A stretch of 64,000 nt of DNA from the IMG/VR virus record IMGVR_UViG_3300025121_000020; one strand, given 5' to 3'. The notes beneath the pieces are model-generated. The model searched no databases. It had not been told where the DNA came from and saw only the letters and a list, made by a program, of their open reading frames with translations. The position numbers and the translations under genes are program-made. Of the stretch, positions 3,801 through 60,158 are shown piece after piece (position 1 is the first letter of the stretch; each line of letters opens with the position of its first letter). This DNA is from an uncultured virus (IMG/VR IMGVR_UViG_3300025121_000020) (taxonomy: Duplodnaviria; Heunggongvirae; Uroviricota; Caudoviricetes).

Positions 3801-4386
3801 GATCGAGGGGGACTACGTCGGGCAGCCCGGCGCAGGCAACACCTTCACGATCACCAGCGGCGGGGCCATCGTGTACGAGTGGGACGGGGTGGGAGCCAAC
3901 GTCAACGTCGCGATCGGAGGCGACGCCGACACCAGCTACGCCAACCTGCTCGCGGCGATCCACGGGCAAGCCCACAACATCCTCTTTGACGTTCCCGCTC
4001 CGGGACGGATCCGAATCCGCACCGCGCTCACCCCCGGCGGCGCCGTGACGGAGAGCGATGCTTCCGTAGCTGTGGCGCACACCACCGCCAACCTGACGAT
4101 GCTGGGTACGAACACCAACCAGACCGGACGGAACCTGATCACGCGCAGGCAGGCGTGGGTCCGACGCGTGGTCGACGTGCTATTCGCGGCAGGCGCAAAC
4201 GGGCGGGTGGGGGAGCTCACGTGGGCTCCCGCACGCATCCTCTGCGTGCAGGTATTCACGGCGACCGGTGCGCCGAAGTACGCCACCGACCTGTTCACGA
4301 TCACGGGCAACGGAGTGCTCTGGGACAGCGACGGCGCGGTCCACATCGCGAACACTGACGAGATTCGGGTGCTGGTCGAAGAGTAA
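838..4386 (+). CDS. large repetitive virion fibre/adhesin-like protein (7 x ~125-aa repeats, YadA-stalk-like motif)
   Basis: 1182 aa; seven units N.ETLA..KVL...LDP.G..R.VTLPA...W..DFGALG..D.IDEST; KLTGVASGTAAGEAVQYSQL resembles a trimeric adhesin neck/stalk motif; SD AAGGA. Confidence 0.65.
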   Translation: MSSALTESQQDYLNGDEGVPSPFTGAYTSPFLGGFRFGDHLTALRNDILSTGFAAARNVETLAATKVLVIADSAIQVLDPDGSTRLVTLPAEALAVDRWFMVYNAAGALGELLTVRDDTPTNIRSLDAGEWGMFACDGTTWVLAGMGHVDFGALGIKMDAFTHSTTATGIDGALADNVANAFRLLEAATEFFAVSTANSAERVRVGKPLALTLAQNVETLTGAKVLVATDSQNQKLDPGGASRNVTLPAEATSSGLWYWIFNSADVLGELLTVRDDTPTTLVILDAGEGCLVKCNGTNWHSVLETYRDFAALGIKTDTIDESTAGAAISLVKALCLAEGTGVNLETLAGPKVLVIADAQFQVLDPDSAPRVLTLPAAKTGLFYWVFNTGGTLGETINVQKADTTSLRILNAGENALFVCAADWVFTGISRVDFGANGVKLDKIDESTTGVGVEITKALLLSGSGAFNSQALAGPLVLAKATSPHFQRLDPNGASRLVTLPAEATSDGLWFIVYNTADLMDELLTVQDDTPVTVLALNAREAGLFICDGTNWTGLRIGKTDFDILGLKTDIIDESTSARAISLIKALRLQGGGAWNVETLAAGKVLTVADPQFHRLDPDGAPRLVTLPAEATSDGLFYVIANGANALGELITVQDDTPAPIYVLDPREMAIFVCNGVNWVYVGRSLCDFGALGLETDAIDESTAGAAISLSKALCLAEGGGANQEVLAGTKTLVVTDAQFQRLDPDSANRNVVLPALKAGLWFRITNYGGTLGETLTVQNPTPATVRILDAGETGTFVSTAAAWFYLGGGLVDFGAPGIKADAIDESTAGAAISLSKAIRLREGAGVNTETLAGAKVLVNTDAQFQKLDPDGAPRDVTLPAVQEGLFYWIYDFGGTLGETLVVKNPAAATLATLNAGQSGLFVCTTASWVFAGPLLGTDFAAVAAALAAATGSVAFNTQKLTGVASGTAAGEAVQYSQLANQLDGSVGVIEGDYVGQPGAGNTFTITSGGAIVYEWDGVGANVNVAIGGDADTSYANLLAAIHGQAHNILFDVPAPGRIRIRTALTPGGAVTESDASVAVAHTTANLTMLGTNTNQTGRNLITRRQAWVRRVVDVLFAAGANGRVGELTWAPARILCVQVFTATGAPKYATDLFTITGNGVLWDSDGAVHIANTDEIRVLVEE

Positions 4387-5086: not shown

Positions 5087-6176
<1,090 letters not shown>

Positions 6177-8403: not shown

Positions 8404-8608
8404 CTGCTTCTCTCTACATACTACGTATGCGAAATACCTGTTTCCCAGGGCGGTCCAGATCGACCGGTCCCTCCGCAGGCGAATTAAGACCCCGACGAAG
8501 CCACTACCGGGATCACTGCGTTCAGATCTCGATCGTGCGTCGCCCCGCATCCCCCGCATGTCCACGATCGATCCTTCAGCTCCCAAGCATCGGAGCCTTG
8601 TATTCGAG
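8404..8608 (-). mobile_element. deleted IS607 derivative retaining the full omegaRNA scaffold and right end
   Basis: 8404-8523 matches 14300-14419; the rest matches tnpB 3' pieces joined at microhomologies. Confidence 0.92.
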
Positions 8609-8618
8609 CTCCTAGAGC

Positions 8619-8663
8619 AGGCTATCACACCTTTCTCAAAACATCAACATATTTTTATGATCT
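8619..8663 (-). promoter_or_regulatory. sigma70-like promoter TTGATG-17-TAGCCT upstream of the omegaRNA remnant
   Basis: -35 at 8647-8642, -10 at 8624-8619, extended TG, upstream ATCATAAAAAT. Confidence 0.65.
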
Positions 8664-11599: not shown

Positions 11600-11645
11600 G
11601 TTATAGTTGAAGAGAGAATAATTGTCAAGAGTATTTTTTAAGATT
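11600..11645 (-). promoter_or_regulatory. phage promoter AATCTTAAAAAAT-TTGACA-17-TATAAC
   Basis: near-consensus -35/-10 with the recurrent upstream element. Confidence 0.75.
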
Positions 11646-13278: not shown

Positions 13279-13389
13279 TGCTGCCTCCCTGAAAGGTTTG
13301 GGGCAAAAGACTACTGTGAAGGAGTCTATAGAGGATAGAGATTAAAGTCAAGAAGATTTTTTAAGAGATTGTGCCTATATCTGACAATC

Positions 13390-14028
<639 letters not shown>

Positions 14029-14279: not shown

Positions 14280-14420
14280 GTCCTTCAAGGTACGCAATGC
14301 TGCTTCTCTCTACATACTACGTATGCGAAATACCTGTTTCCCAGGGCGGTCCAGATCGACCGGTCCCTCCGCAGGCGAATTAAGACCCCGACGAAGCCAC
14401 TACCGGGATCACTGCGTTCC
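14280..14420 (-). ncRNA. TnpB omegaRNA; guide starts at 14299 (CAUUGCGUACCUUGAAGG...)
   Basis: overlaps tnpB 3' end and right end; conserved in the other copies; GCUUC/GAAGC pseudoknot potential; 5' boundary approximate. Confidence 0.8.
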
Positions 14421-15483
14421 TGATGTTGATCGCGGCGTTCAGATCGCGATCGTGTATCGCCCCGCATCCCCCGCATGTCCACGATCGATCCTTCAGCTCC
14501 AGATCCTCTTTTTTCCATCCACAAGCTGAGCAAAGCTTACTCGACGCGAACCAGCGATCGACGACGACAACCCTACTCCCGAGCATCGGAGCCTTGTATT
14601 CGAGCTGCCTCCGGATCTCCCCGAAGGCAGCGTCGGCCAGGGATCGAGCTAAAGATCTCAGACCCGTCATCCCTCGCACATTCAGATCCTCGAGACCGAT
14701 CAAGTTGTGCTGTCTCACCAGCTCAGACGTCATCTTGTGAATGGCATCTCCCCGTTGGTCGGCCACCCGTGCGTACGCCCTCGCAACCCTGGCCTTGGCT
14801 TTCAGCCAGTTCGAAGAGCCCTTGACCTTGCGTGAGAGGGACCGCTGAAGTCCTCTCAATTTCTTCAGTGCCCCAGCGAGGTGTCGCGGGTTCTGGAAGC
14901 ACACGCCGTCCGAGCAGACGGCCAAAGTCTTCAATCCGAGATCGATCCCTACCGATCCACCTGGATGAGCTAGGGTACGGTTCGGCATCTCGACTTGAAT
15001 CGAGATCCACCAGTGCCCGGCCTTGAACGAGATCCGCCCAGAGAGGATTTTCCCGACGAAGCGAAGCACCTCCGCCATGTTGACGACGCCGATCAGCTTC
15101 TGGATCCGCAGTGCATGCCCGTCGACGTCGAACCGATCGTTCGCAAGGTAGAAAGTGGGCTTGCTCCGGTGCTTTGCCTTGAACTTCGGGTAGCCGACAC
15201 TCTTCATGCCGCGGAAAAAGTTCGCGAACGCCTTGCCGAGATCCGAGAACGCGCCCTCGACGGCGGACTTCGTGACGTCGTACGTCCAGGGGAATGCGGA
15301 TCCCTTGACCGCATTGAAGTCCTTCTTGAGACCCAGAGCGGACGGCTTGCCCCCGTCCTTATAGATCCGCTCCCACTCCGCCCGGCCCCAGTTGAAGGCG
15401 AAGCGAGCGATGCCACACGCCTGGCGGAAATAAGCCTCCTGATCGGGAGATGGGTTCAGGCGGATGCGGTGGGAGAGGATCAT
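14380..15483 (-). CDS. tnpB: RNA-guided endonuclease TnpB, catalytic residues intact
   Basis: RuvC GIDLG, LEDLNV, DRDLNAA; CSAC/CGGC zinc finger. Confidence 0.97.
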   Translation of the reverse strand: MILSHRIRLNPSPDQEAYFRQACGIARFAFNWGRAEWERIYKDGGKPSALGLKKDFNAVKGSAFPWTYDVTKSAVEGAFSDLGKAFANFFRGMKSVGYPKFKAKHRSKPTFYLANDRFDVDGHALRIQKLIGVVNMAEVLRFVGKILSGRISFKAGHWWISIQVEMPNRTLAHPGGSVGIDLGLKTLAVCSDGVCFQNPRHLAGALKKLRGLQRSLSRKVKGSSNWLKAKARVARAYARVADQRGDAIHKMTSELVRQHNLIGLEDLNVRGMTGLRSLARSLADAAFGEIRRQLEYKAPMLGSRVVVVDRWFASSKLCSACGWKKEDLELKDRSWTCGGCGAIHDRDLNAAINIRNAVIPVVASSGS

Positions 15484-16097
15484 TCTTTTGCCGATTCTAG
15501 CGCAGTTTTCAACGCTTTCTTGTAATTGCGTAAGCCATACAGACGAGAGGAAAAGCAGTGTACCACCGTCATCAGATCTTGAACCATTTCCTGCTCAGGG
15601 GATAATTTTTCAGAATTCAACACGCGAATGGCGCATTCGTGCGTGTGGCAATAGTGCTCAAACCACTCAAAGCCAAACCGACACAGGCGATCCTTGTGCG
15701 CAATGATCAAGTCTGAGATCTCACCTCGCCCGACGCGATCCATGATCTCGACGAATCGCTTTCGTCTCAAGTTCATCCCACCGCCGATTTCCTCCACGAA
15801 CTCCACACCGTCCAAACCGCTAGCTCCGCAAAAACCCTCTAACACCCCTCGTTGGTTCTTCAAGTCCGGTCTCTGCGCGTGAGAAGAGACCCGGCAGTAG
15901 GCGATGCATACCCGTACACAGGGAGAAGTCAGCCTACCCAAATAGGCGTCCAGAGACTGCTGCGCATATACACGCCTTCCGGAAGGAAGGCGTTCCGCGC
16001 GTAAGGATCCTTCCCGATCCCAACGTTGGAGAGTTTGCGGATGCTTACCTAGGTAAGCAGCGGCTTTTCCGAGAGAAAACATCTTCATAGAGACCAT
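15480..16097 (-). CDS. tnpA: IS607 serine transposase
   Basis: MerR-like HTH, YCRVSS catalytic motif, FSSRLYG. Confidence 0.97.
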   Translation of the reverse strand: MVSMKMFSLGKAAAYLGKHPQTLQRWDREGSLRAERLPSGRRVYAQQSLDAYLGRLTSPCVRVCIAYCRVSSHAQRPDLKNQRGVLEGFCGASGLDGVEFVEEIGGGMNLRRKRFVEIMDRVGRGEISDLIIAHKDRLCRFGFEWFEHYCHTHECAIRVLNSEKLSPEQEMVQDLMTVVHCFSSRLYGLRNYKKALKTALESAKE

Positions 16098-16370
16098 GAT
16101 AACATACTATTGCATACGTTGTCAAGAGCTAGATTAGCGCTCACATCTCCCCCACACGGTTCATGGCCGCCGCGTACCCCTCCGAGTACCCAGTAGACCA
16201 GCTCTTCTGCTTCCTGGTCAGCTTTTCACCGTCTGCTCGTCTCGAGACGAGAGCCATGTTGAAGATACTAAACTCAGTCGTGACACTTACCCCGAACTCG
16301 TACTCAAACGCGTAATTGAACGTTTCCACGAAACTGTCATTCAGCTTCTTTGCGATCTTCTGGGCTTTGC

Positions 16371-20323: not shown

Positions 20324-20386
20324 ACCCAAAGGTATGCAAAATACCTATTTCTCGGGGCGGTCCAGATCGACCGGTCCCTCCGCAGG
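20324..20386 (-). mobile_element. degenerate omegaRNA fragment (IS607 relic)
   Basis: ~60 bp similar to 14320-14376 and 55894-55956; both element ends lost. Confidence 0.8.
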
Positions 20387-20818
20387 AATGAAATCCGACT
20401 CCTTCGCCAAAAGTAGACTCATAAGAAGTAAGCTCTGCACCTTCGCTTTGCCGACGCTGTGCCCGCTTGGCGCGTGTGCAGGCTCCGCTGTCGGCTCCGC
20501 TGTCGGCTCCGCTGTCGGCTCCGCTGTCGGCTCCGCTGTCGGCTCCGCTGTCGGCTCCGCTGTCGGCTCCACCAGCGTCATACTATACCTCTGCCTCTGC
20601 CTGCACGCCTCCCGATACGAGACCATGTCCGTGAACTCAGCATCCCCTGTCTCCCGCCTCTTGAACAGGTTCGCAGGCAAGAACGCCGTGAAGATCAGCA
20701 CAGGCTGCATACGGTGCACCCCGTCCTCTCCCCTTACGTCCCGATCCTGGTAGATGTCCCGCTTGACCGCCAGCGGGAGGCCATGCGCCCTACGATACTG
20801 GAGTTCTCTGCTCGTCAT
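20345..20818 (-). CDS. hypothetical protein with (EPTA)n repeat
   Basis: 157 aa; 12-bp repeat x7.5 at 20481-20570; stop codon lies in the omegaRNA relic. Confidence 0.5.
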   Translation of the reverse strand: MTSRELQYRRAHGLPLAVKRDIYQDRDVRGEDGVHRMQPVLIFTAFLPANLFKRRETGDAEFTDMVSYREACRQRQRYSMTLVEPTAEPTAEPTAEPTAEPTAEPTAEPTAEPAHAPSGHSVGKAKVQSLLLMSLLLAKESDFIPAEGPVDLDRPEK

Positions 20819-21899: not shown

Positions 21900-24800
21900 T
21901 CAGTAGCTGTTGTAAGGCAACAGGTAGACGGCAGGCTCCCCTCCGTCTGGGAGCACTCCCCGGAACTCGGCAGCGGCATCCTCGATTGCCTTCAACGGTA
22001 CGACCAGTCCTTTGGTACTACGGATGCATGTAGCACGCCCGAAGGACACCCCGATCAGGTACGAATCCGCATCCCCCAGGTGAGTGTCACTGTCTGGTGC
22101 CCGGGAGATCAGGGACAGCCTCCCTACGTGCAAGCTATCAGTGTCTACCTTCTCCCACGGCGTCTTTGCGGCATCTCGCGCAAAGCGCTGCGAGTGCGTC
22201 CCGACCTTCCGACCGCACACAGGGCAGAAAGTAACCCCGGCCACCACATGTTCGCAGTTCGGGACGTCCTCTTCTGTGTAAAACATCGCCAAGTCGACCG
22301 GCCTACCTACGACAAGGTTCACGTAGCAATCAAGACCCCTGTTTCACCCCATCCACCTCGACCAACAGCGCATGTTCCGGGCAGAACTCGTAACCTCGAG
22401 AATTGACGACCCACTTCCCGAGCTCCTCGACCTGTCCAGGTTCTGGCAGTAGCCTGGAAGGGGAGGAGAGTGCATCTCCGCCACGCTCGAGCCACTTCCC
22501 AAACTGCGGTTCTCGGAGCATGCACAGCAGGCTTAGCACGTCGTCTCGCTCCAACCCTTGCGCAGGACGAAGCGTAATCCCGATAGATTTCTGGCAGTCT
22601 TGGTAACAACACAATGCGACAGCACACAAAGACCCCAACTGCCGTCTGGAATACTGCAGGTATTGAGCCAACGAGTCTTTATGGACCCACTGAACCCCCC
22701 TGTAACACTCGCGATAATACTCCCTCCCTAACTCCAGCAGTTGCTTGGGTATCACGATTTCACCTCTTGATCCACTTCCGCCCATGGTGCAGGTCTCCAT
22801 GGCTTTCTCCGCCTGCAGGGATAGCAGCCCAAGATCGGGACACTACTTTCTTGCCACCACCCAACCTCAATCGACGGGCAACACTGCCAACGCCTCCCCA
22901 ACGTCGGCGGGTCAACTTCGATCGCCCAGTGTCCCGTCCATGCCTCGAGCCTCTCCGGCGTCAACTCAGTCACTGACCGAATATCGGGACACCTCGGGCA
23001 AGTGTATCTAACGCATCCAACTGTGTGCGAATCGTCGGGCACCGCCTCCAGAACGGTCCCGCACTCGCACATGATGGTGGGTTCCAACGTGCTTCCTCGC
23101 GATGCATAGCAGTCAAGCCTCACTCTCTTTCTCCTCCCTCAACAGATACTCTTTGACAGGTTTCCACCTCTCCCGCTGGATCCGCGCCCCCTGCTCGCAC
23201 CCCAACAGGAAGGTAACCAAAATGAGCTCGTCAAGCGCATCACGCCCGTTTTCCCACGCATGACTCAACCCGGCCGCTGACAGCGCTTCCGCTGGGGGAG
23301 GGGACATCGGCACCGCAATGGGATACCCCGGACCTTCGTACTCAATGTCCCCCCTCCTACGCCGAAAGGTATAGGCACTCTTGAATGCTCTGCGCATAAA
23401 CGCGCAAACGTCTTCAACTTCAAGAGTGCCGTCATCCTCTGGCCATTCCGACACGCCCCGCCCTACTACCTTTTGCATGCACCCTCCGACATTCGAATCG
23501 GTATCCCCTGTTCCACCCTCAACAAGAGATAGGGGCTACCACGACCCACTACGTACTCCCCCGCCTCATCCAGGACAAGCCGATGCGTGAGCAGCACCGG
23601 GTACCTGACCCCCCTCTTCTTCGCCCACTCCACTGCGGCAATCCGCCTCTCCGGAGTCGAAATATCCCAGGTAGACCATGTCTCGCCACCCTTCTCGATG
23701 AACTCAGCTTCCCAGCACTGACAATCCGCATCGGTGTAGCATCGGCCTGATGTTCCCATCGCGTAACCTCCTTGGTGCGCAAACACCGCTCGCCTGAAGA
23801 CCCCCCTACTCTCCCCACTCAACGAACAAACCTCTGCTGTCACATCTATCTCTGTTTCTAAGAAGCGACGGAGGCGTGTAACCTCCCTCGCAGCATGCGC
23901 GTACAGATCTCGATCCCCCACGTCAACAGAGTAACCAAGGAGACGGCACAGCTCCTCACGCTCTGCGCCGTCCCTCGCAGGCCTCCGGCATGCCGGGCAC
24001 CAGGTAGACCCGCATAGCTCGCCCATACCGGCCTCTTTACCTTCGCGCATGCTGACCCCCCTTACTGTGTCCCCGAACGGGTAACCGCTGCCGTCTCTTC
24101 CACAACGGCGCATCTGCCGTAAAATTATCAGCGCCACGAGACGGATACGACGGTGTGCTCACAACCGAAAGGAACTCCAACGCCCCCACGGCATCCAAGT
24201 CCCCCCTAACGCGGTCTGACACCAGCAAGACCACCTGACCGTCACTTGCTTTGCACGTCACGTCACCTTCCCCCCTCTGGCAAGCAGGTACCCTAGCGCG
24301 ATCTGGGACGTCCCCAAGCTCAGGCACCAAGGCTTCCCGCCTTCCGCGCGCTCCCAGGTAAGGAAAACAGGGTACCCGGCGACCTCGAGCGTCCCCCGGT
24401 GCTTCTGCTCTCGAACCGACGCGACGACGAGATCACGCCCGTCTTCGTGCGTCAAGTGGAGCAAGACGTCTCCACTCGCCTTCAGGCCAACGGGAACCTT
24501 GCGAGACATGGACCAACCTCTCCACGTGAACGGCTTTACAGCCATCTGCCACCTACCCTCCTTCTCAAGACTGCTGCCACCTGCCGCGTCGCGTCCAACA
24601 CGAAGTCGACGTAGCCGGTGCTACCGGTGCTACCGGTGCTACCGGTGCTACCGGTGCTACCCTTCCCCCGCTGAGCCTGCTCAACAAGCTTCTGCGCGAA
24701 CAAGTGGTTCACCTCCATGGGCTCAATATAGACTCGATCGCCAGTGACGTTACCAACGTACTGCTGCGCCCGCACGGCGGCGACCGGACTGCTCGCGATG

Positions 24801-50714: not shown

Positions 50715-53130
50715 ATGGAAAACAACGTAAGCCTGGTTCGCAGCGACGAACTCTCACAGGGTGTCTCGGTAGCCTTCTGGGTACTCGAAGTTCTCCGAGA
50801 CATTCGTCGCCTAGCGGAAACGGACCGTCCGGTGACGCAGTACCTGCGTCGGCTGGACCTTAACGAGTCGCATGAGCGCCTCCAGGCGTGGATGTCATGA
50901 GGGTACAGCAGGCCGGCGTTTGGGTAGTTCGGGACGGGAAGCCTTTTCGCTTCATGGTGGGGTACGAACCCTTCCACTCGGAAACAGAAGTGCGGACGGA
51001 GATCCGGAAGGCAAGGGAGGCGATCGCACTGCTTCAGACGGCGATCGAGAACATGGAACGGCTCTTGTCGGAGGATAGGGACGAGTGAACCTTCAAATCC
51101 AAGGCGTGCTGCCTGCCGAAGCACGCCAGGAGGCATGCAAGATGTTTGACTTCAGGAAGCTACTGTCCCCAGAGGCCCGCTGCCGCCTCCGTCATTTCCA
51201 CCAAGAGCAACTTTACTTCTCTGCTTTGACTGACGCGGAGTTGCGGGAGCGCGCCGTATACTACCTGGGAAACTGCCAGCGCGACGGGTTAGCCTCCTAC
51301 CAACCCGGGGAGCCCGTCTACGACGCTTCGATGCGCCACACGATACTCCCTGAGCTAATCGCGCGTCTGGACCCGAACAGGGAACGTCCAGTGCGTTTGA
51401 GCGGGGAGGAGCTGGCGAGTGCGCTCACGGATGTTCCGAGTACGTGGGTCGTGGAGAGGGAGGGGGTGTGTTGGCGAGCGGAAGAGCTTCGGATTGAAGA
51501 GGGTAGAGTGCGAGGGGCTTCGGAAAGAGAGAAGTGGCTGATACTGTGGGCCGTGCGGTGGAGAGATCCTTATGCGTAGATTCAGCGAGGGGGACTACCG
51601 GATACTTCTCCACATTCGGCAGGAGGGGGGTGTATGGGTGGGCGGGGAGGGTATCACCCATTGCGCAGCAAATCGCCTTCTCGAGTGGGGACTCGTTCAG
51701 TACCGGAGGCCCTCAGAGTTGCTGCTGACGAGCAAGGGTACAGAGCTACTACTGAGCGCCCGAAAGGCGGCAATAGAGCACATGAGGAGCATGTTATGAT
51801 CGCCAAGAAATTACGCGCGCTTCCGGACTTCCACTCGAGTGCGTCCCTCTACTCGCTGGACATTCCCTACCCGCCGAGTAACTACCGCCCGGACATGGCG
51901 CCGATCGATTACGTGGTCGCCTGCGCTCCCGCTGCAATCGGGTTAGGTGGGGATGACAGCGTGATTCTTCTTCCAGCTACGGAGACGGGAGAAATCCGGA
52001 ACTGCAACGACCTGCCCGGGAGCTGGGTGGAGAGCGCCGAGGAAGCGTTCAGAAGGCATGGTTATGTCACCGAGTGAATACTATCGCACCCGTTATCCCG
52101 GTGAGTCCTGGACGCCAGCGATCATCGCAGAGGACGTCACTGAGACGTGCAGGCGCCTTGGGTGGTCGCCGGAGAGGGTGAGGGAGCATCCGGCGGAGGC
52201 GGAGAGTGAGGCGGTCGAAATTTGGCTGCACTTGGAAGAAGTGGCGGAAATGACGGGGGACATCCCGGTGGAGGAGTGGTGAGAAGTATTCTATAACGCG
52301 TGTGGTATCGCCTGTGCGTGCTCTGGTGGCGGCGAAGGCACAAAAAGGCGGATAGCCCTTATCAGTACGTTGTGACCTATGTGGATAATTTGGGAAAGGC
52401 ATCGCCAGAAGTCCCGACCGTCCCCTGCGGTACGGTCGTTGCGGGAAAGGATGTCAAGCTAACCATTTCCGGCGTTCCAGCAGATGCCAACCGTATCAAA
52501 ATCTACCGCAAGATCCCGAAAGGAGCCAAGTGGTGAAAATAGACGATCTCCTGCGTACCTTCGCTGAGGCGTCTCCCGCACTATATTGTCCGCAGTCGAC
52601 TTGCATACCAAGGTTCCTACTGAGGGACGTGTCAAGTTGACTGTTTCTGGTGTTCCTGAAGACGTGGAATGCATCAAAGTCTTTCGTACGAGAGGGTTCC
52701 CCCCGCGATGTATCAAGAAAGGACGATTGTGAAATTAGAGGATCTTCGTCACATCTTCGCTGAGGCATCCCCCGGCATCCATCAGGCGCGTGAAGCGCAT
52801 CGCGTCTCTGACGAGCAGCTCGAGAAACGACATGAGGCTCTGGACAAGCTCTCGAAGCCCTTCGTGCTGGCTCTCCGCAGACGCCTGTGGCGCACGTACA
52901 AGATCGATGCCTCTGTCCAGGTTCTGCATTCTCGATCTTACGCGGAGACGGTACCTTGGATCGAGTTGGTCTGGAAAGGACGGGCGGGCAAAGTTGTCAT
53001 GGACATCCCGAGCTACTGCACGACGCAGGAAGGGCTGGATGTCTGGGTGGGGGCGTTCGTTCGGGCGGTGGGGGAGATGGAGAAACTCTCCACGTATGTG
53101 GAAGTAAAAAGCATAAGGATCGTGATATGA
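50715..53130 (+). other. run of small hypothetical ORFs (50715-50900, 50897-51088, 51085-51579, 51572-51799, 51796-52077, 52064-52282, 52300-52536, 52728-53130)
   Basis: co-oriented with ATGA/GTGA overlaps. Confidence 0.55.
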
Positions 53131-53981
53131 ACCAACAGTTAATGAAATGGCCGGGAGGGAAAAGACAGCTCCTCCCTGAAATCATAGCCCGGCTGCCTTT
53201 TACCTGGAACACCTACTACGAGCCCTTCGTGGGTGGTGCGAGCGTGTTCTTCGATCTCTGCAAGAGAGAGTTGGTAACACCCTCTGCGGTCATCTCAGAC
53301 AGTAACGCAGATCTGATCTCTCTTTACACGATCGTGCGAGAGTCCCCAGAGACTGTGATCGCCCGCGTCTCTGTGCTGGCCGAAGAGATTTCTGAGGAGC
53401 GCTACTACGCGGTGCGCTCAAAGTTCAACGCGGAACGTGACGCCCCATCTGCTCAACGCGCCGCGTGGTTCCTCTATTTGAACCATCTGGCCTTCAACGG
53501 CATCTATCGGGTGAACAGGAAGGGAGAGTTCAACGCCCCCTACTGCCACCCGGAGAAGTACGGAGGCGGTGGGTCGAGAAAGCACTCCGCTGCGGAGATT
53601 GTCCGCCCTGATGTCGTTCGAAAAGCCTCCGCGCTTCTGTCGAAGGCGACGATACGTTGCGCGGACTTTCGAACCGTGCTCGAGACTGTGAAGGCCGGAG
53701 ACTTCGTCTACCTGGACCCGCCCTACTGGCCCCGGAACGTGACGTCGAATTTCACGGCGTATGCAGGGACTTTCGGCCCGGAAGAGCAGGGAGCGCTCGC
53801 CGGGTGCGCGATGGATCTCGAGGCGCGCGGGGTCCAGTGGATGCTGTCGAACTCTGATGTCTGGTCGGTCCGGGAATTGTATAAAAGGTTCCGGATCGAG
53901 ACGGTGATGGCGCGGAGGGGGATTAACTGCAAGGCAGGGGGGAGGGGGAAGGTGGCGGAAGTGCTGGTGAGGAACTATTGA
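53127..53981 (+). CDS. dam: Dam/D12-class N6-adenine DNA methyltransferase
   Basis: KWPGGK, YYEPFVGGASV, FNGIYRVN.KGEFN, YLDPPY. Confidence 0.93.
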   Translation: MNQQLMKWPGGKRQLLPEIIARLPFTWNTYYEPFVGGASVFFDLCKRELVTPSAVISDSNADLISLYTIVRESPETVIARVSVLAEEISEERYYAVRSKFNAERDAPSAQRAAWFLYLNHLAFNGIYRVNRKGEFNAPYCHPEKYGGGGSRKHSAAEIVRPDVVRKASALLSKATIRCADFRTVLETVKAGDFVYLDPPYWPRNVTSNFTAYAGTFGPEEQGALAGCAMDLEARGVQWMLSNSDVWSVRELYKRFRIETVMARRGINCKAGGRGKVAEVLVRNY

Positions 53982-54336
53982 CTATGCGAAGTAGAATCTA
54001 CCAGCACATCGCTGCGCACCCAGGATGCCGACGTTGTGACGCACTGTTACTATCCCACTGGGTGGTTCAGTATCTTGGAACCAGGTCGTCAACACACTTT
54101 CTCGGAGAGTGATCGGGAATGGGCTCGAGTTTCGCTGGATAGGATAAAATTGTAGTTGACTTTTTAATACTAGGTAGAGTAAACTCAACTTTTGAAGGGA
54201 AGCTGCAACGCGCAACAATTCGAACCTTGGAGGCCCTATGCACTACCGCATCTCGATGGGATACTGACTTAACGCAATCGCAGGTTTGACGAGGGGGACG
54301 TTTCTTTTTGTTACTTAACGCTACTAGAGGTGAAAA

Positions 54337-55479
54337 ATGGCAGACGTATCGTTGATGATCCCCGGGCAAACCGGGGTCGTCGAATTCGATGAAGACAACA
54401 TCTCTTCACAGGGGGTGCAGACCGTCGAGAACATCCCCAGTTCCACGCGCATTCCGCGCGTCCTTCTCCTGACTACGAATTCTGGACTCCATGCCACCGC
54501 GGGATTCGCTCCCGGTACGTGGGCGTTGGGCGGGAAGATTCCCCGACCGATCACGAGTGACCCCGAAGCTCCGTTCCTGTTCGTGGTATCGGCGATCCGG
54601 CACCTGCAGGTTCGGCAGAACCCCTTCGACGCCCCCGTCGACAAAAGCAAGGTTCTCTGTGCGGGGTTCTGGGACGCTGAAAAAGGCAATTTCAGCGCTA
54701 TCGTCCCGGGAGGTATTCAGTCTCCATCCAACCAGGGGTTGCTCGCCCGGACGGAAAAGAAGCCTATCAAGGGCTCGAAGAAGATGGAGGACGTCCTGTC
54801 CGGGTGGGAGTTCCCAGAAGACTGTGAGCCTACCACTGACTGTGCACGATGTCTCTACGGGCCAGGACGCAACCCGAAGGCTCGTCCCGGTGATCGCGGG
54901 TTCTTGCCAAAGAACTTCAAAGCCGTCACGAAGGAAGGGATCGTACTCGAGTGCGCCGTACCGGACGACCTCCGGAAACCCGGGAAGACGGACTGCGCAG
55001 TGACGATCGCAGTGATCGGGCACATCGCGGTGCCTGGGTACGACGGTGCGCCGTCGGAGTGGCTTCCGGGTAAGCTGGTCTTCAAGTCGACCGGGTTCGC
55101 GGCGGGTCAAGCTCTTGACAACCTGATCAAGAGCTGGGTTCGTGACACCACCAAGGCGCCGTGGAGCTACATGGTACTGGTAGGGTCGTCTGCGAAAACA
55201 AACGCAGGCGGTGTCAGCTACCGAGCCGTCGAGTTCCTCGGCCCGCACAAGGCCAAAGACACGACGGGCAAGGAGCGACCCGTTTCAACACCGGGGCCGA
55301 AGGCGGAGGCGGCAGGGAAGACGAACGTGCAGGCTATGGCGCGGGCGCTGGCGGAAGGGCTCGAGGATGCGGACTGGATCGGCGGGCTCGAAGATGATGA
55401 CGGAACGGAGCGGCCGCTGGACGAGGACGCGCGGGAGATGGCGGGAAGTGTGGAGGAGCCTGCGGATCAGGCGTACTGA
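54337..55479 (+). CDS. hypothetical replication protein with acidic tail (possible SSB/annealing protein)
   Basis: SD GAGGTG; very acidic C-terminus; upstream of pol module. Confidence 0.55.
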   Translation: MADVSLMIPGQTGVVEFDEDNISSQGVQTVENIPSSTRIPRVLLLTTNSGLHATAGFAPGTWALGGKIPRPITSDPEAPFLFVVSAIRHLQVRQNPFDAPVDKSKVLCAGFWDAEKGNFSAIVPGGIQSPSNQGLLARTEKKPIKGSKKMEDVLSGWEFPEDCEPTTDCARCLYGPGRNPKARPGDRGFLPKNFKAVTKEGIVLECAVPDDLRKPGKTDCAVTIAVIGHIAVPGYDGAPSEWLPGKLVFKSTGFAAGQALDNLIKSWVRDTTKAPWSYMVLVGSSAKTNAGGVSYRAVEFLGPHKAKDTTGKERPVSTPGPKAEAAGKTNVQAMARALAEGLEDADWIGGLEDDDGTERPLDEDAREMAGSVEEPADQAY

Positions 55480-55496
55480 GGTTACCAACCATCAAC

Positions 55497-55672
55497 GAAC
55501 CGTCCGGCATCAGGTGAGCCGGAAGTCCCGACCTAGCCCAATCGGGCGGGTGACTCGATTCATCCCAGTCCCCGGCTATGTCCCGTGAAACGGGAAGTGA
55601 GTTCGTACACACGACGCGTCCCTCGCATGAAATCAGGAACTGAACGCGTCGCTGGGGATCAGGGTTTATTTT
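55497..55672 (+). ncRNA. unassigned structured RNA (partly related to copies A/B)
   Basis: several nested stems; shares TCCCGAC..ATCGGG..CGGGTG with A/B. Confidence 0.55.
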
Positions 55673-55674
55673 TC

Positions 55675-55836
55675 GGCAGGGAGCGCTCCCGACTCCCCAC
55701 TGACGAAACATCGGGAGGGCGGGTGGCACCGCGCGCTTTTTATAGACCTTTGGAGCAAAGCAGCCAAACCGAAGGATGCTGGCAAGAGCATCCTTTGACC
55801 CAGCGGGGGAGGCCGCGTGCCTGACAGCGGGATTTT
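55675..55836 (+). ncRNA. unassigned pseudoknotted RNA, copy A
   Basis: paralog of 56291-56448 with stems preserved despite sequence change. Confidence 0.75.
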
Positions 55837-55849
55837 ACTACTCAGGGAG

Positions 55850-55972
55850 CGCTAATCTAGCCCCGGTAGTGGCTTCGTCGGGATCTTAATTCGCCTGCGG
55901 AGTAATCGGTCGATCTGGACCGCCCCGGGAAACAGGTATTTCGCATACCTTTGGGTATGTAGAGAGAAGCAG
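55850..55972 (+). mobile_element. 123-bp IS607 mini-element: left tip + omegaRNA scaffold/right end
   Basis: GAG|CGCTAATCTAGC identical to IS left end; ends GTAGAGAGAAGCAG. Confidence 0.93.
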
Positions 55973-55980
55973 GATTCCAG

Positions 55981-56244
55981 ATGGACGACATGCACATTCG
56001 CGACGCTCTGCAAGCTTTCAAGCGGTCTGCGGAAGTTGGGGTCGAGGAAATAGAACGGAACCGCTGTAGAGTCGAGAACGGGTGGCTCGTGCTCCAGAAG
56101 AGTGGGAAGCCGCACACGGCTTCTGACGGCGTAGAATACGCCCCGCTCGATCCGATCGTGTACTTCGACGAGTTTTTCGCCAGAGTCGTGGCGAAGTCGA
56201 TCGAGGGGTCGGTGGTGACGGTGAGAGAGTATTTGGAGGGGTGA
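55981..56244 (+). CDS. hypothetical protein
   Basis: 87 aa; SD reconstituted when the mini-element is removed. Confidence 0.65.
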   Translation: MDDMHIRDALQAFKRSAEVGVEEIERNRCRVENGWLVLQKSGKPHTASDGVEYAPLDPIVYFDEFFARVVAKSIEGSVVTVREYLEG

Positions 56245-56290
56245 TGCCCTCGATACCTCCTGATCGCTTTTCAAAGTAATCTAGTGCGCA

Positions 56291-56448
56291 GGCAGGGGAG
56301 CGCTTCCGACTCCCTGGCTCCAGAACATCGGGAGGGCGGGTGGCACCGCACGCCCTGAATATCTCTCGGGGCAAAGCAACCAGACCAGGAATGTGTTGGT
56401 GCACATCCTGACCCAGCGGGGGAGGCCGCGCGCCAGACAGCGGGATTT
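56291..56448 (+). ncRNA. unassigned pseudoknotted RNA, copy B
   Basis: identical blocks CATCGGGAGGGCGGGTGGCACCGC and TGACCCAGCGGGGGAGGCCGCG shared with copy A. Confidence 0.75.
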
Positions 56449-56475
56449 ATTATCTATAACTCGAGGTGCGCGTAC

Positions 56476-57321
56476 GTGAACCACCACCACATCAAGCAGG
56501 CACTCTCCCTTCTTGGCTTCGACCCTCTCCCGTCTCCAGATCGCGCCGGCATGCTCGATCAACTCGACGTCGCCGCGCGGTCCGTCGGGTACGACGTTTC
56601 CTGGTACCTGACTTCAGACGCCACTTTCCACCGTGGTTACGTGCTGGGGTCGCTCGGTTGCGCTCTCCTGGACGGCGTCGCGGGGTACGAGGGGGAGCAC
56701 GTGGCCGCTTACCGTGACGGGTACCGGTTGGGCCTGGCGAGTCGGGAGCGCCTCAGCCCCCCCTCTCATCGCGATGTCACGCGGGGGGCACCGCTGCCTC
56801 TCTCGGATACTACTCCCGATCGACGCGTAGCGCAGCCCATGGTGTTCGGTCGCGGCGCTGATGGGTTCTTCGTTCCCGTCGGGCACGCGGTCCACGTGCT
56901 GAGCGAGCGCGTGGATGTGCACGGGAACGCCTACCTGCTCGCGGAGTGGGGAGGATTCCTCATGCTGGTGGGGGAGCCCGAGCGGAAGCTCGCGCCCGTC
57001 GCGGGGTTCGAGAGAGACGTCGACCGCGCGGAGATCCTGCGCGAGTGGTTCGAGGGGCCGGATCCTGGCATCTGGGAGGAGGACGCCGTGCTGCACGCCC
57101 GTCTGCTTGAGCTGGTGCCCACGGCGGGGAAGCGAGACGTGCAGACCGCACGCACGGCGTACGGTCGGCGCAAGGATGACCAGGCTCTCGGTTGGGTGCA
57201 GGCCAGAGTGTACGCTATGAAGGAATGGCGTAAGACCGATACATCGCTGTCTTTTACGGATCGTTTCGCGTCCCTGCCCGAACTGACCCGCTTGTCGTGC
57301 GCGTGCGCGAGGGGCATGTGA
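56476..57321 (+). CDS. hypothetical protein
   Basis: SD GAGGTG; overlaps pol start. Confidence 0.65.
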   Translation: MNHHHIKQALSLLGFDPLPSPDRAGMLDQLDVAARSVGYDVSWYLTSDATFHRGYVLGSLGCALLDGVAGYEGEHVAAYRDGYRLGLASRERLSPPSHRDVTRGAPLPLSDTTPDRRVAQPMVFGRGADGFFVPVGHAVHVLSERVDVHGNAYLLAEWGGFLMLVGEPERKLAPVAGFERDVDRAEILREWFEGPDPGIWEEDAVLHARLLELVPTAGKRDVQTARTAYGRRKDDQALGWVQARVYAMKEWRKTDTSLSFTDRFASLPELTRLSCACARGM

Positions 57322-60158
57322 CGGAAGACGCTGCATACCTGGCAGGATACTCCCTCTGCCGCACCGCGGACGAGTGGCGCGCGTGTCTCCGTGATGCGCA
57401 GGACGCCGCGGAGGTAGCGGAAGACTACGAGACGCGTCCTGCGCCGGATATGTACTCGCACGAGAAGAGCCCGCTCCGTCCCGAGCAGGGAGCGCTCATT
57501 TGCGGTATTTCCCTCGCGTGGAGGGCGGGGGGCGCACTGCGCTCCTGCTACGTCGGATTCCGCCACGACCCGCGCTGGCAAGTTGGGTCGCAACCGGACG
57601 CGGAGGAGGTGCTCGAGGCGTACAGGGAGTGGTGCAGGAAACGAGAGAAGATCTACCTATTAGACCGATGGCGTGGTCTTCGCATTTGTCACAACATGCG
57701 AATGGAGGACTCCCAGAACCTCCGGGAACAGATTCCCTGGCCGCTGCAGGGGCAGCGCCACGACACGATGCCCGCCTATCGCATCACGTCTCGTGGTGTC
57801 GGGATCCGGGAAGTGATCGGCTTGAAGTCCTTGCGCAACAAGTGGCTCCCGGGGCGGGGATACGCGGATCAGAAGGACGAACTGGACGCGTGGCTCAAAG
57901 GTAAGGGCTACAAGGCGGGGCGCGACATCTGGCGCGCGCCGATAGAGCTGGCAGGCAAGTACGGGGCCGGTGACACGTGCTCGAACCTCGAGCTCTGGGA
58001 GCTGGTGAAGCCCGAGCTGTTCCGCCCGCACGACGGCGGGCTCGGCTGGTGGTGGCAGCGCGGGCACTTCGAGATCAAGGGGGAGCAACCCCTCGCTGAC
58101 CTGTACGAGCTGGAGATCGAGACGTGCGCGCAGGCGGTCCTGATGGGGCACGCTGGGAGCCGCTTCGACTTCGCGAAGGCCGAGAAGCGCGCGGCACAGG
58201 CTCAGGCACTGCGAGACGCGTGCGACGCGTGGGTGCGTGACCACCTACCTGCCGATGCTGGGTGGATATCTAAGGGGAAGGAGTTCAACGCTGGTTCCAC
58301 TCAGCACGTCCAGCGCCTCTTTTTCGGGGACGGAGGAGAGCACGCGGGCTTCGGGCTCGAGGTGTCCGCCGAGCACATGAGCCAGAAGTTTCAGGAAATG
58401 AGCGCGGCGCAGCAGGAGGCAGCGCTGGCCGATCCGGTCAAGAAGATCCACTACGCGGCGCTGGACGTCGCTGCGATGGATCACTACGCCAGGGAGTATC
58501 CGGAGCATGGGGACATCATCTTCATGATCGGCGTGCGGCGCAAGATGATGACGGTGCTCACGTGGGCGCAGAAGGTACCGGATCGTTACGCTGTGCGCGC
58601 GTGTCCGGATCCGTGGTGGGACGCGACAGACCCGGATCGACCGTCGGTGGATTTGATATTCCATCAGATCGGCACGGTTCAGACGATGCCGGGGCGCATG
58701 AGCAGCTCGGACTACAATGGGCAGAACGTGAGCGCCGACAAGGTACTGCAGATCAAGGGGAGGGCAATGGCGCTGCTGTCCGCGCACATGGACGTGGATG
58801 CCTTTGGCGCGCTATCGCGTCTCCTGGAACCTCGGGCGGACGGGAGCGTCGATCTGGGGATTCGGTGCCTGTTTCTGACGCGGGAGGGTAGCGCGGGAGC
58901 CCCGATCGACATGTCCCAGATCGAGGTGCGAGGGTTCGCCGGCCTGACGAAGAACAAGATGCTCTGCGAAGGGTACGGTGTTCCGCCGACGCAGGAACAA
59001 GTGGCCGCGGAACTTGGCCTCCTGCGGGCAGTCGGAGAAGGTAGGCTGACGACTGAGGAGTACCTGGCGCAGTGCGTGCTGGACCCCCTCCGGCACTGGC
59101 GCGGTGTCCCGATCGACGCGCACAGCCTGGTGGCGTCCATGACGCTGGATGACGCCGACGTCCGCAAGATGCTGGGGGTCGACGTCTCGCGCGAAGTCTT
59201 CGACGACGTATTGCAGCTCGTGGCGTCTGATGAAGAGCGTGCCGCGCTCCTGTCCCTGATGATGCTGGGGGACGTGGAGGTGGACCAGGACCAGGACGCG
59301 GCCGCAGTCGCCGTAACACACGCGAGGAAGGGGACGTCTCCAGCGGGGGCGTTGGTTCGGGAGATGCCCATTGAGGCGATTCGAGACGCTGTTCGCGGTT
59401 TAGACCCTCAGCGTGTAGGGTCCGTCGAAGCATTCGTAGACATGCTCGTGAAGCTTCGAAAAGGCAAGAAGAGCATCACGTTCGGCATCATGTACGGCAT
59501 GGGTGCCGCGAAGCTCGCTCGGAGCCTGGGAATGACGTATCTCGAGGCGCGCGACTTCCTGGACAAGAAGTATTTCGCGCGCTTCCCAGAGGCGAAGACG
59601 ATCCCGAAAGACATCGAGCGAGCGATCATCCGGCGCGCTAATGCGGGCAACGACTGGGTAGGGTGGATGCGGAACCCGAGCGGGCGCAAGTTTACCTTCC
59701 GCGTCGAGTGGCAGCACTACCCGTCCGATCCGAAGTGCTCGGCGTGCGGGAAGCTCCCGGACAGGACGCGCTTCCGCCCGTGCGACAAGTGCCACCTGTC
59801 CGCCGTCGGGGCGTACGTGGCGGTGAACAGGTTCATCCAGGGGTACGCGGCGGCGCTCTACAAGGTGGGGTATGTGCGGGCGAACCAGCTCCTGGGGATG
59901 CGCACCTTCGGGGGAGGTGCCGTGCACCCGGTCACGCGACGACCGACGCAGAAGAGTTTCGGGGAGCGGGCGATCCACGACGAGACGATTTTCATGCTCC
60001 GGAAGGAGATCGACACCCCGCTCACGGATTACTGCCTGCGGAGCGCGATGACTCTGATGACGGGGGTGGGTGTGCCGCTCGAGACGAGCTCGGAGAGGTA
60101 CGAGAGAGAGTGGGGGAGGAAGAGGAGCGTGAAGTTTACGAGGTTTGAAGTAGCGTGA
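57318..60158 (+). CDS. polA: family A DNA polymerase with 3'-5' exonuclease domain
   Basis: DYET, CHN, YGAGD; DMSQIEVR, KSITFGIMYG, IHDE. Confidence 0.93.
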   Translation: MTEDAAYLAGYSLCRTADEWRACLRDAQDAAEVAEDYETRPAPDMYSHEKSPLRPEQGALICGISLAWRAGGALRSCYVGFRHDPRWQVGSQPDAEEVLEAYREWCRKREKIYLLDRWRGLRICHNMRMEDSQNLREQIPWPLQGQRHDTMPAYRITSRGVGIREVIGLKSLRNKWLPGRGYADQKDELDAWLKGKGYKAGRDIWRAPIELAGKYGAGDTCSNLELWELVKPELFRPHDGGLGWWWQRGHFEIKGEQPLADLYELEIETCAQAVLMGHAGSRFDFAKAEKRAAQAQALRDACDAWVRDHLPADAGWISKGKEFNAGSTQHVQRLFFGDGGEHAGFGLEVSAEHMSQKFQEMSAAQQEAALADPVKKIHYAALDVAAMDHYAREYPEHGDIIFMIGVRRKMMTVLTWAQKVPDRYAVRACPDPWWDATDPDRPSVDLIFHQIGTVQTMPGRMSSSDYNGQNVSADKVLQIKGRAMALLSAHMDVDAFGALSRLLEPRADGSVDLGIRCLFLTREGSAGAPIDMSQIEVRGFAGLTKNKMLCEGYGVPPTQEQVAAELGLLRAVGEGRLTTEEYLAQCVLDPLRHWRGVPIDAHSLVASMTLDDADVRKMLGVDVSREVFDDVLQLVASDEERAALLSLMMLGDVEVDQDQDAAAVAVTHARKGTSPAGALVREMPIEAIRDAVRGLDPQRVGSVEAFVDMLVKLRKGKKSITFGIMYGMGAAKLARSLGMTYLEARDFLDKKYFARFPEAKTIPKDIERAIIRRANAGNDWVGWMRNPSGRKFTFRVEWQHYPSDPKCSACGKLPDRTRFRPCDKCHLSAVGAYVAVNRFIQGYAAALYKVGYVRANQLLGMRTFGGGAVHPVTRRPTQKSFGERAIHDETIFMLRKEIDTPLTDYCLRSAMTLMTGVGVPLETSSERYEREWGRKRSVKFTRFEVA

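Follow-up and report, generated by a model that had tools for sequence, protein, structure and literature searches.

The analyzed window is a 64-kb stretch of DNA with a GC content of about 0.56–0.66 that is apparently part of the genome of a large groundwater phage. The stretch was found in 18 sequencing runs, all of which are DNA metagenomes, and 15 of the 18 originate from groundwater. According to PHROG and Pfam matches, the window encodes terminase-like, RecJ-like, and primase-like proteins, a helicase, a Dam methylase, a family A polymerase, a thymidylate kinase, and an exonuclease. A contig of 157,812 bp is on record as encoding a TnpB protein identical to that of the window.

The locus under study is located in a block of rightward genes, in which the Dam methylase gene (52887–53981) is followed by ORF380 (54337–55479), ORF87 (55981–56244, + strand), ORF281 (56476–57321, + strand), the family A DNA polymerase gene polA (57318–60158, + strand; Pfam DNA_pol_A, E = 1.5e-16; phrog_17, DNA polymerase), and then by nucleotide-metabolism genes. 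The product of ORF380 resembles Pam3 gp34, a protein without known function, in the protein atlas (feature score 0.93; TM score 0.49 by query and 0.73 by row). For the 87-codon gene ORF87, no Pfam or PHROG family was matched; five of its seven strain differences are synonymous third-position changes, and the remaining two are E>K and I>V. ORF281 starts with GTG and likewise carries seven strain differences, five of them synonymous. With its start taken from the identical deposited protein P0001, its stop codon overlaps the polA start as GTGA; such a stop/start overlap is a usual sign of coupled translation. Judged by these sequence features, both ORF87 and ORF281 are real protein-coding genes, and they show no mutual similarity (E = 0.91).

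Several repetitive sequences were noted elsewhere in the window. An ORF of 1182 aa (838–4386, + strand) is made of internal repeats of about 375–381 nt (families D3–D7) and matches phrog_32934, a family of unknown function. Long tandem arrays of the microsatellite type, perfect and built from units of 6, 8, 4, 12, and 9 nt, occupy positions 5362–5541, 13366–13583, 20457–20582, and 24615–24661, and at least one tandem array lies inside an ORF with a PT-repeat Pfam match (20345–20818). In addition, an A/T-rich 27-nt motif with the core TTTTTTAAGATT..GTAC (repeat D11) is present in six copies, at 11632, 13355, 34397, 43398, 50602, and 50668, and in this genome of ~60% GC it is a candidate for a promoter or regulatory site of the phage.

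Two paralogous elements, designated A and B, were found between the genes of the replication block. Element A (55676–55842, + strand) is a structured non-coding sequence of ~165 nt with a U-rich 3′ tail. Element B (56293–56454, + strand) lies directly upstream of ORF281, and its A/U-rich tail runs into the ribosome-binding site of this gene. Their alignment has a mean column identity of 83%. Identical blocks of 26 nt and about 40 nt adjoin three hypervariable patches, which correspond to the first loop and to the hairpins P3 and P4; elsewhere, only a few single changes occur. A 24-mer and a 21-mer taken from the conserved blocks each have exactly two sites in the 64 kb with up to three mismatches allowed, and two or more sites were obtained in 0 of 100 shuffles. 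A covariance model built from the two sequences (R1) and run over the window with filters off recovered A with 197.7 bits and B with 184.7 bits, and the next-best match scored 9.9 bits. The two copies differ by one 1-nt and one 3-nt indel, which rules out a shared reading frame. Given the synonymous strain differences in ORF87 and ORF281 and the GTGA overlap, each paralog is placed just ahead of a real gene, B being ahead of the polymerase pair. Thus, the first-pass annotation, which was made from the DNA letters and described two paralogs of ~160 nt as non-coding RNAs in a replication operon, holds for A and B with respect to paralogy, gene context, and non-coding status.

All pairings listed in that annotation are present in both copies (64 of 64 cells paired). 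These are the first stem CUCCCGA/UCGGGAG, which contains a U.G pair in B, the pairing of its CUCCC loop with a downstream GGGAG, the GGGU/ACCC stem, and two hairpins; a CCGC/GCGG stem (4 bp, 10-nt loop) precedes the U-rich tail in A and B. An alternative model is also completely paired across A and B (62 of 62 cells). Its core is a 9-bp long-range helix, 43–52/137–146 in element numbering (43–46/143–146 and 48–52/137–141), which appears in the RNAalifold consensus and in the minimum-energy fold of both elements. Since this helix uses bases of the GGGU/ACCC and CCGC/GCGG stems, the two models are mutually exclusive, with strand 137–141 common to both folds. Thus, the two proposed stems can form in either copy, but they compete with the helix of the minimum-energy folds. 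The elements contain three purine tracts GGGAG(G) and two pyrimidine tracts CUYCC, which would allow pairing in several registers and make alternative folds plausible.

Pairs in which both bases differ between A and B number four and occur only in the local hairpins (one in P3 and three in P4), so that two hairpins that differ in sequence yet pair, as had been proposed, are indeed present. The three double changes in P4 depend on the alignment and could come from one event in which the tip of this hairpin was replaced. The pseudoknot, the first stem, the GGGU/ACCC and CCGC/GCGG stems, and the long-range helix are invariant or changed on one side only. The CUCCC–GGGAG pairing, from which the elements had been called pseudoknotted, is possible in both copies, but all five of its pairs are invariant; the two copies therefore speak neither for nor against the pseudoknot, and the same applies to the invariant long-range helices. 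The observed covariation was reached in 42 and 33 of 500 shuffles; as only two copies from one genome were compared, covariation has no statistical power here and this shuffle control is uninformative.

The minimum free energy of A is −63.8 kcal/mol on the + strand (z −1.55) and −56.0 kcal/mol on the − strand (z +0.24); the values for B are −65.3 kcal/mol (z −1.01) and −56.8 kcal/mol (z +0.34), respectively. The folding energies of both elements are ordinary for their composition, and the z-scores are not significant. Nevertheless, the + strand folds better by ~8 kcal/mol in both copies, the − strand folding no better than shuffled sequences, and the G.U pairs of the helices are legal only in the + sense. 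This strand preference fits an RNA made from the gene strand.

Strain variants inside element B comprise three pyrimidine transitions, 56304 T>C, 56312 C>T, and 56349 C>T. The variants at 56312 and 56349 convert C-G to U.G pairs in the models and keep the pairing, whereas 56304 T>C produces a C.A mismatch in both fold models. In a strain diverged by ~4%, two changes fall in the first 69 nt of B (2.9%), compared with 7 in 264 nt of ORF87; since the density of changes in B is not below that in ORF87, no extra constraint is visible in this strain. The identical blocks of A and B may stem from gene conversion instead of selection.

The region between ORF380 and element A (55497–55675, + strand) is a hairpin-rich spacer with a minimum free energy of −69.0 kcal/mol (z −2.20; 6 of 200 shuffles fold as well). 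It had been proposed as a third RNA of the same family (55497–55672). The spacer is absent from the 67 matches of the R1 model in the window up to E = 10 with filters off, and a MAFFT alignment with A and B gives scattered identities only. Accordingly, of the proposed cluster of three RNAs, two are paralogs, but the third is not a member. In one strain (run X11), 30 nt are missing from the spacer at 55614, and with them one arm and the loop of a hairpin; position 55540 is changed from A to G, and 55500–55527 is present in an additional copy, so that the first hairpin occurs twice. The spacer behaves as a string of separable hairpins that are gained and lost between strains.

A further feature, located between element A and ORF87, belongs to a family of mobile elements represented in the window by a complete copy. 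Neither this feature nor ORF87 appears in the first-pass annotation. The complete IS607-family element (14300–16142, − strand) encodes a serine-recombinase TnpA with Resolvase and MerR HTH domains and a TnpB with OrfB_IS605, Cas12f1-like_TNB, and HTH_OrfB_IS605 domains; TnpB was matched at E ≤ 0.001 by 5944 of the 8000 candidate proteins scored. Two solo right-end copies on the − strand (about 8404–8620 and 20332–20390; repeat D10) were placed in a four-way alignment with this element and the copy at 55.9 kb. Positions 8404–8523 and 14300–14419 are 100% identical over 120 nt, and the sequence following ...GAAGCAG differs at every copy. At the left end of the complete element (16090–16142, − strand), a near-consensus sigma-70-type promoter (TTGACA, 17 nt, TATCAT) is located ahead of tnpA; this promoter is missing from the remnant at 55.9 kb. 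Five TnpB paralogs (P0008–P0012; 60–65% identity) share one longest listed contig, 184,768 bp in length, which may represent a related large phage or the host.

The copy at 55847–55972 (+ strand; the reverse complement of repeat D10) is a decayed solo remnant without tnpA or tnpB. It consists of ~15 nt of the left junction (GAGCGCTAATCTAGC) fused to a ~111-nt piece that covers the 3′ end of tnpB and the right end, the region of the TnpB guide-RNA scaffold. The sequence GAGCGCTAATCTAGC, i.e., the 15 nt to the left of the right-end part, corresponds to the left junction of the complete element, and 55862–55972 can be aligned with the two other solo copies and, in the complete element, with the 3′ end of tnpB and the right end. 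By this sequence continuity with the 3′ end of tnpB, 55862–55972 is assigned as an IS607 TnpB guide-RNA/right-end segment. An independent freshwater contig contains 55880–55972 with one mismatch and with unrelated flanks, which sets the right boundary of the remnant at 55972. Both junctions of the remnant read CAGG; insertion of IS607 at GG without target duplication is described in PMC6188088, and a link between IS607 TnpB proteins and guide RNAs derived from the right end is described in PMC11061315 and PMC8612924. With one complete element and three solo right-end copies in 64 kb, the remnant shows that IS607/TnpB elements are active in the phage genome.

The resemblance of 55862–55972 to IS607 TnpB guide RNAs (omega RNA/reRNA) lies in its homology to the tnpB 3′ end and right end; unlike these, the piece at 55.9 kb is solo. 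Elements A and B share only an 11-nt junction motif with the remnant. The R1 model scored only 5.8 bits (E = 1.4) at the IS copies 8480–8523 and 14376–14419, the ORFs flanking A and B are not TnpB according to Pfam and PHROG, and the Rfam models of transposon-associated RNAs gave no match here.

The 11-nt motif CAGGGAGCGCT, which repeats the first bases of A, occurs at 55843–55853 (+ strand), where it abuts the left edge of the IS remnant. Four sites in the window match the motif exactly (53787, 55677, 55843, and 57486), each of them on the + strand; the sites of the form (G)CAGGGAGCGCT(C) are 53786–53798, 55676–55688, 55843–55853, and 57485–57497. Two of the copies fall into the coding sequences of the Dam methylase and PolA and are read there in one common frame (E-Q-G-A-L). 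At the left junction of the complete IS, AATCTAG is flanked on its left side by the last 7 nt of the motif. The recurrence of CAGGGAGCGCT may be coincidental, or the motif may serve as an IS target or be recognized by a protein or an RNase. The start of A also contains a perfect 12-bp palindrome, GGGAGCGCTCCC, of which CAGGGAGCGCT forms part. A second short motif, TAATCTAG, has three copies in the window, at 16129 (− strand), 55853, and 56277, and three or more copies were found in 0 of 100 shuffles. The copy at 56277–56284 (+ strand) is situated 8 nt before element B, and together with the copy at 55853 it brackets the ORF87 segment.

These repeats raise the question of whether A and B act as DNA, namely, as a replication origin with iteron-like repeats or as binding sites of a regulator or recombinase. 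The elements are direct repeats within the replication module, beside polA; each is followed by an A/T-rich stretch, and the palindrome at the start of A and the clustering of the four CAGGGAGCGCT copies within 53.8–57.5 kb would suit such a function. However, the motif copies are all on one strand, and the two in coding sequence, being in the same frame, are possible coding coincidences. The palindrome is imperfect in B; in a cruciform or on the opposite strand, the G.U pairs of the helices would turn into A.C mismatches, and the − strand folds no better than shuffled sequence. A DNA-level function is considered very unlikely.

A search of Rfam 15 at gathering thresholds gave no matches over the 64-kb window, with riboswitches, self-cleaving ribozymes, 6S, tmRNA, and RAGATH/HEARO models included. 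When matches up to E = 10 were considered for 55300–56700, only U6 (15.8 bits; threshold 44) and a snoRNA (15.1 bits; threshold 40) were reported, neither of them over A or B; the elements are thus unassigned, as previously annotated. No tRNA or tmRNA was found. Folds of the HDV-like and twister-like types and a link to group I introns/IStrons were considered and dropped, as no Rfam model scored and the strand order did not fit. Intrinsic terminators were defined as a G+C-rich stem of at least 5 bp with a loop of 3–8 nt followed by a U-tract. In the scan of 54000–57500, the − strand yielded two such sites, which lie outside A and B, and the + strand yielded no canonical terminator; the CCGC/GCGG stem, with 4 bp and a loop of 10 nt, falls outside this definition. 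No promoter-like site bracketing A and B was detected.

These results bear on the possibility that A and B are stable trans-acting RNAs processed from the operon transcript, i.e., ribozymes, protein-binding or decoy RNAs, or guide-like RNAs with specificity loops. Their length of ~165 nt, the compact multi-helix fold with a U-rich 3′ end, the conserved junctions with variable loops, and the six GGA-containing purine motifs per copy are consistent with such RNAs. A perfect 13-nt complement to nucleotides 8–20 of A is also present inside ORF281 (56739–56751, + strand), but a complement of this length is expected ~0.3 times by chance in the window (estimate). For the variable loops, no complement within 54000–58500 exceeds 9 nt. 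Neither a promoter-like site nor a canonical terminator brackets the elements, and no Rfam ribozyme or sRNA family was matched at E ≤ 10. Moreover, no gene for a partner protein is evident, ORF380 being a Pam3 gp34 look-alike. A stable trans-acting RNA appears unlikely, and the ribozyme and specificity-loop readings proposed in the first-pass annotation are unsupported.

Relatives of the locus were sought in several collections. No match was obtained among 50,697 phage records either with 55480–56480 in BLASTN or with PolA and ORF380 in TBLASTN. Motif scans of IMG/VR returned 1, 0, 1, and 42 loci, all of which were chance matches according to inspection, BLASTN, and the R1 model. A scan of metagenomes with a loose pattern gave at least 119 loci, with no extended similarity among the matches listed. 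Locus searches anchored on proteins (PolA, a PolA alignment, an ORF380 alignment, and a TnpB relative) revealed no related replication locus. The 19-mer of the IS right end was found at 29 loci in genome contigs, all of them chance matches of 19–24 nt, and these therefore give no clue to the host. The R1 model matched none of five whole genomes; a match in one of 151 genomes of one phylum (21 bits, per-genome E 0.0012) was rejected, as the 95-nt core is missing from it. At the protein level, PolA has one relative (P0002) with 50% identity among 5.8 billion clustered proteins, and ORF380 has four relatives (P0128–P0131) with 37–42% identity among 1.84 billion representatives. The phage lineage is very sparsely sampled and almost without sequenced relatives.

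The same searches, which gave no homolog of A or B in the collections covered, are relevant to a further explanation, according to which the elements are a functionless relic of segmental duplication or recombination in an IS-active spacer and their hairpins are at most generic intercistronic stabilizers or insulators. The insertion of the IS607 remnant between A and ORF87, the hairpin turnover in the spacer 55497–55675, and the 11-nt copy of the start of A with the two TAATCTAG copies flanking the ORF87 segment all agree with a rearranged region. The non-significant z-scores and the lack of visible excess conservation in the diverged strain also agree with a relic. On the other hand, the divergence between A and B is strongly patchy, with identical junction blocks beside changed yet pairing hairpins; the + strand is consistently favored in both copies, and the distance to the start codon is similar for both once the IS remnant is removed. 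An origin as a relic is regarded as somewhat unlikely.

The preferred interpretation, to which a probability of roughly 0.35 is given, is that A and B are paralogous cis-acting 5′-leader RNAs of one rightward transcript of the replication block, acting as a translational operator or a riboswitch-like switch. The conserved 3′ block of B ends at 56448, which leaves a gap of 27 nt to the GTG codon of ORF281 at 56476. The conserved 3′ block of A ends at 55836; when the remnant 55847–55972 is removed, 18 nt separate it from the ATG codon of ORF87 at 55981, and an AGG(G)A purine run lies in the Shine–Dalgarno position, 7–8 nt upstream of the start. A leader position is thus seen for B and, once the IS remnant is taken out, also for A, which would originally have been located about 18 nt ahead of ORF87, with the IS607 remnant now in between.

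In addition to the position at two start codons, the leader interpretation is suggested by the preference for folding on the gene strand, by the conserved junctions combined with variable but paired hairpins, by the two exclusive folds with one common strand, and by the A/U-rich tail that runs into the ribosome-binding site. It is weakened by the low power of a comparison of two copies from one genome, by the dependence of three double changes on the alignment of P4, by the non-significant z-scores, by the C.A mismatch at 56304, by the lack of visible extra constraint in the diverged strain, by possible gene conversion of the identical blocks, and by the absence of a canonical terminator on the + strand. 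Furthermore, 3′ elements belonging to the upstream genes would account for the layout just as well. Taken together, A and B are a genuine but modest orphan RNA candidate in two copies, with a putative leader role.

If the elements are leaders, a possible mechanism would be a toggle between a closed fold, held by helix 43–52/137–146, and a fold with the GGGU/ACCC and CCGC/GCGG stems and the CUCCC–GGGAG pseudoknot. The three GGGAG(G) and two CUYCC tracts would be the competing partners, and the adopted fold would decide whether ribosomes gain access to the A/U-rich tail and the adjacent Shine–Dalgarno sequence. The trigger could be a phage replication protein, resulting in autogenous translational repression, or a small molecule, as in a riboswitch. 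A more specific version of the leader interpretation would make A and B the founding pair of a new class of regulatory phage RNAs, in which a ligand- or protein-sensing switch gates translation of the polymerase operon by toggling between the long-range helix and the pseudoknot/hairpin fold, the variable hairpins being tolerated decorations; this version is quite unlikely.

Should A and B be regulatory leaders, a large uncultured groundwater phage would meter its polymerase operon by RNA structure, and the elements would constitute a new RNA family. The present value of the analysis is a well-delimited candidate and a corrected map of the locus, which contains two paralogs, a variable hairpin spacer, an IS607 guide-RNA remnant, and a small gene.

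Among known systems, riboswitch leaders and the translational operators that control replication genes of phage T4 appear to be the nearest functional analogues of A and B, the likeness being one of possible action and not of family. In T4, a pseudoknot in the gene 32 mRNA precedes an unstructured leader rich in A and U, and the mRNA of gene 43, which encodes the DNA polymerase, carries an operator hairpin. As in T4, a structured and possibly pseudoknotted RNA would immediately precede the ribosome-binding site of a replication gene in a polymerase operon, and an A/U-rich single-stranded stretch follows the element, which is striking in a genome of ~60% GC. Unlike the T4 operators, A and B are larger (~165 nt) and duplicated and have no sequence or family relationship to them, so that the resemblance is limited to the layout. 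With riboswitch leaders, A and B share the putative 5′-leader position, the conserved junctions with variable stems, and the exclusive folds sharing strand 137–141, whereas they have no Rfam riboswitch match, canonical terminator, ligand clue, or phylogenetic spread. Paired cis-acting phage RNAs are also represented by putL/putR of HK022 and nutL/nutR of lambda, which follow promoters closely and have RNA polymerase as their target. The two paralogous elements described here resemble these pairs in their occurrence in early/replication transcripts of one phage; in contrast to put and nut, A and B have no evident promoter nearby and abut start codons.
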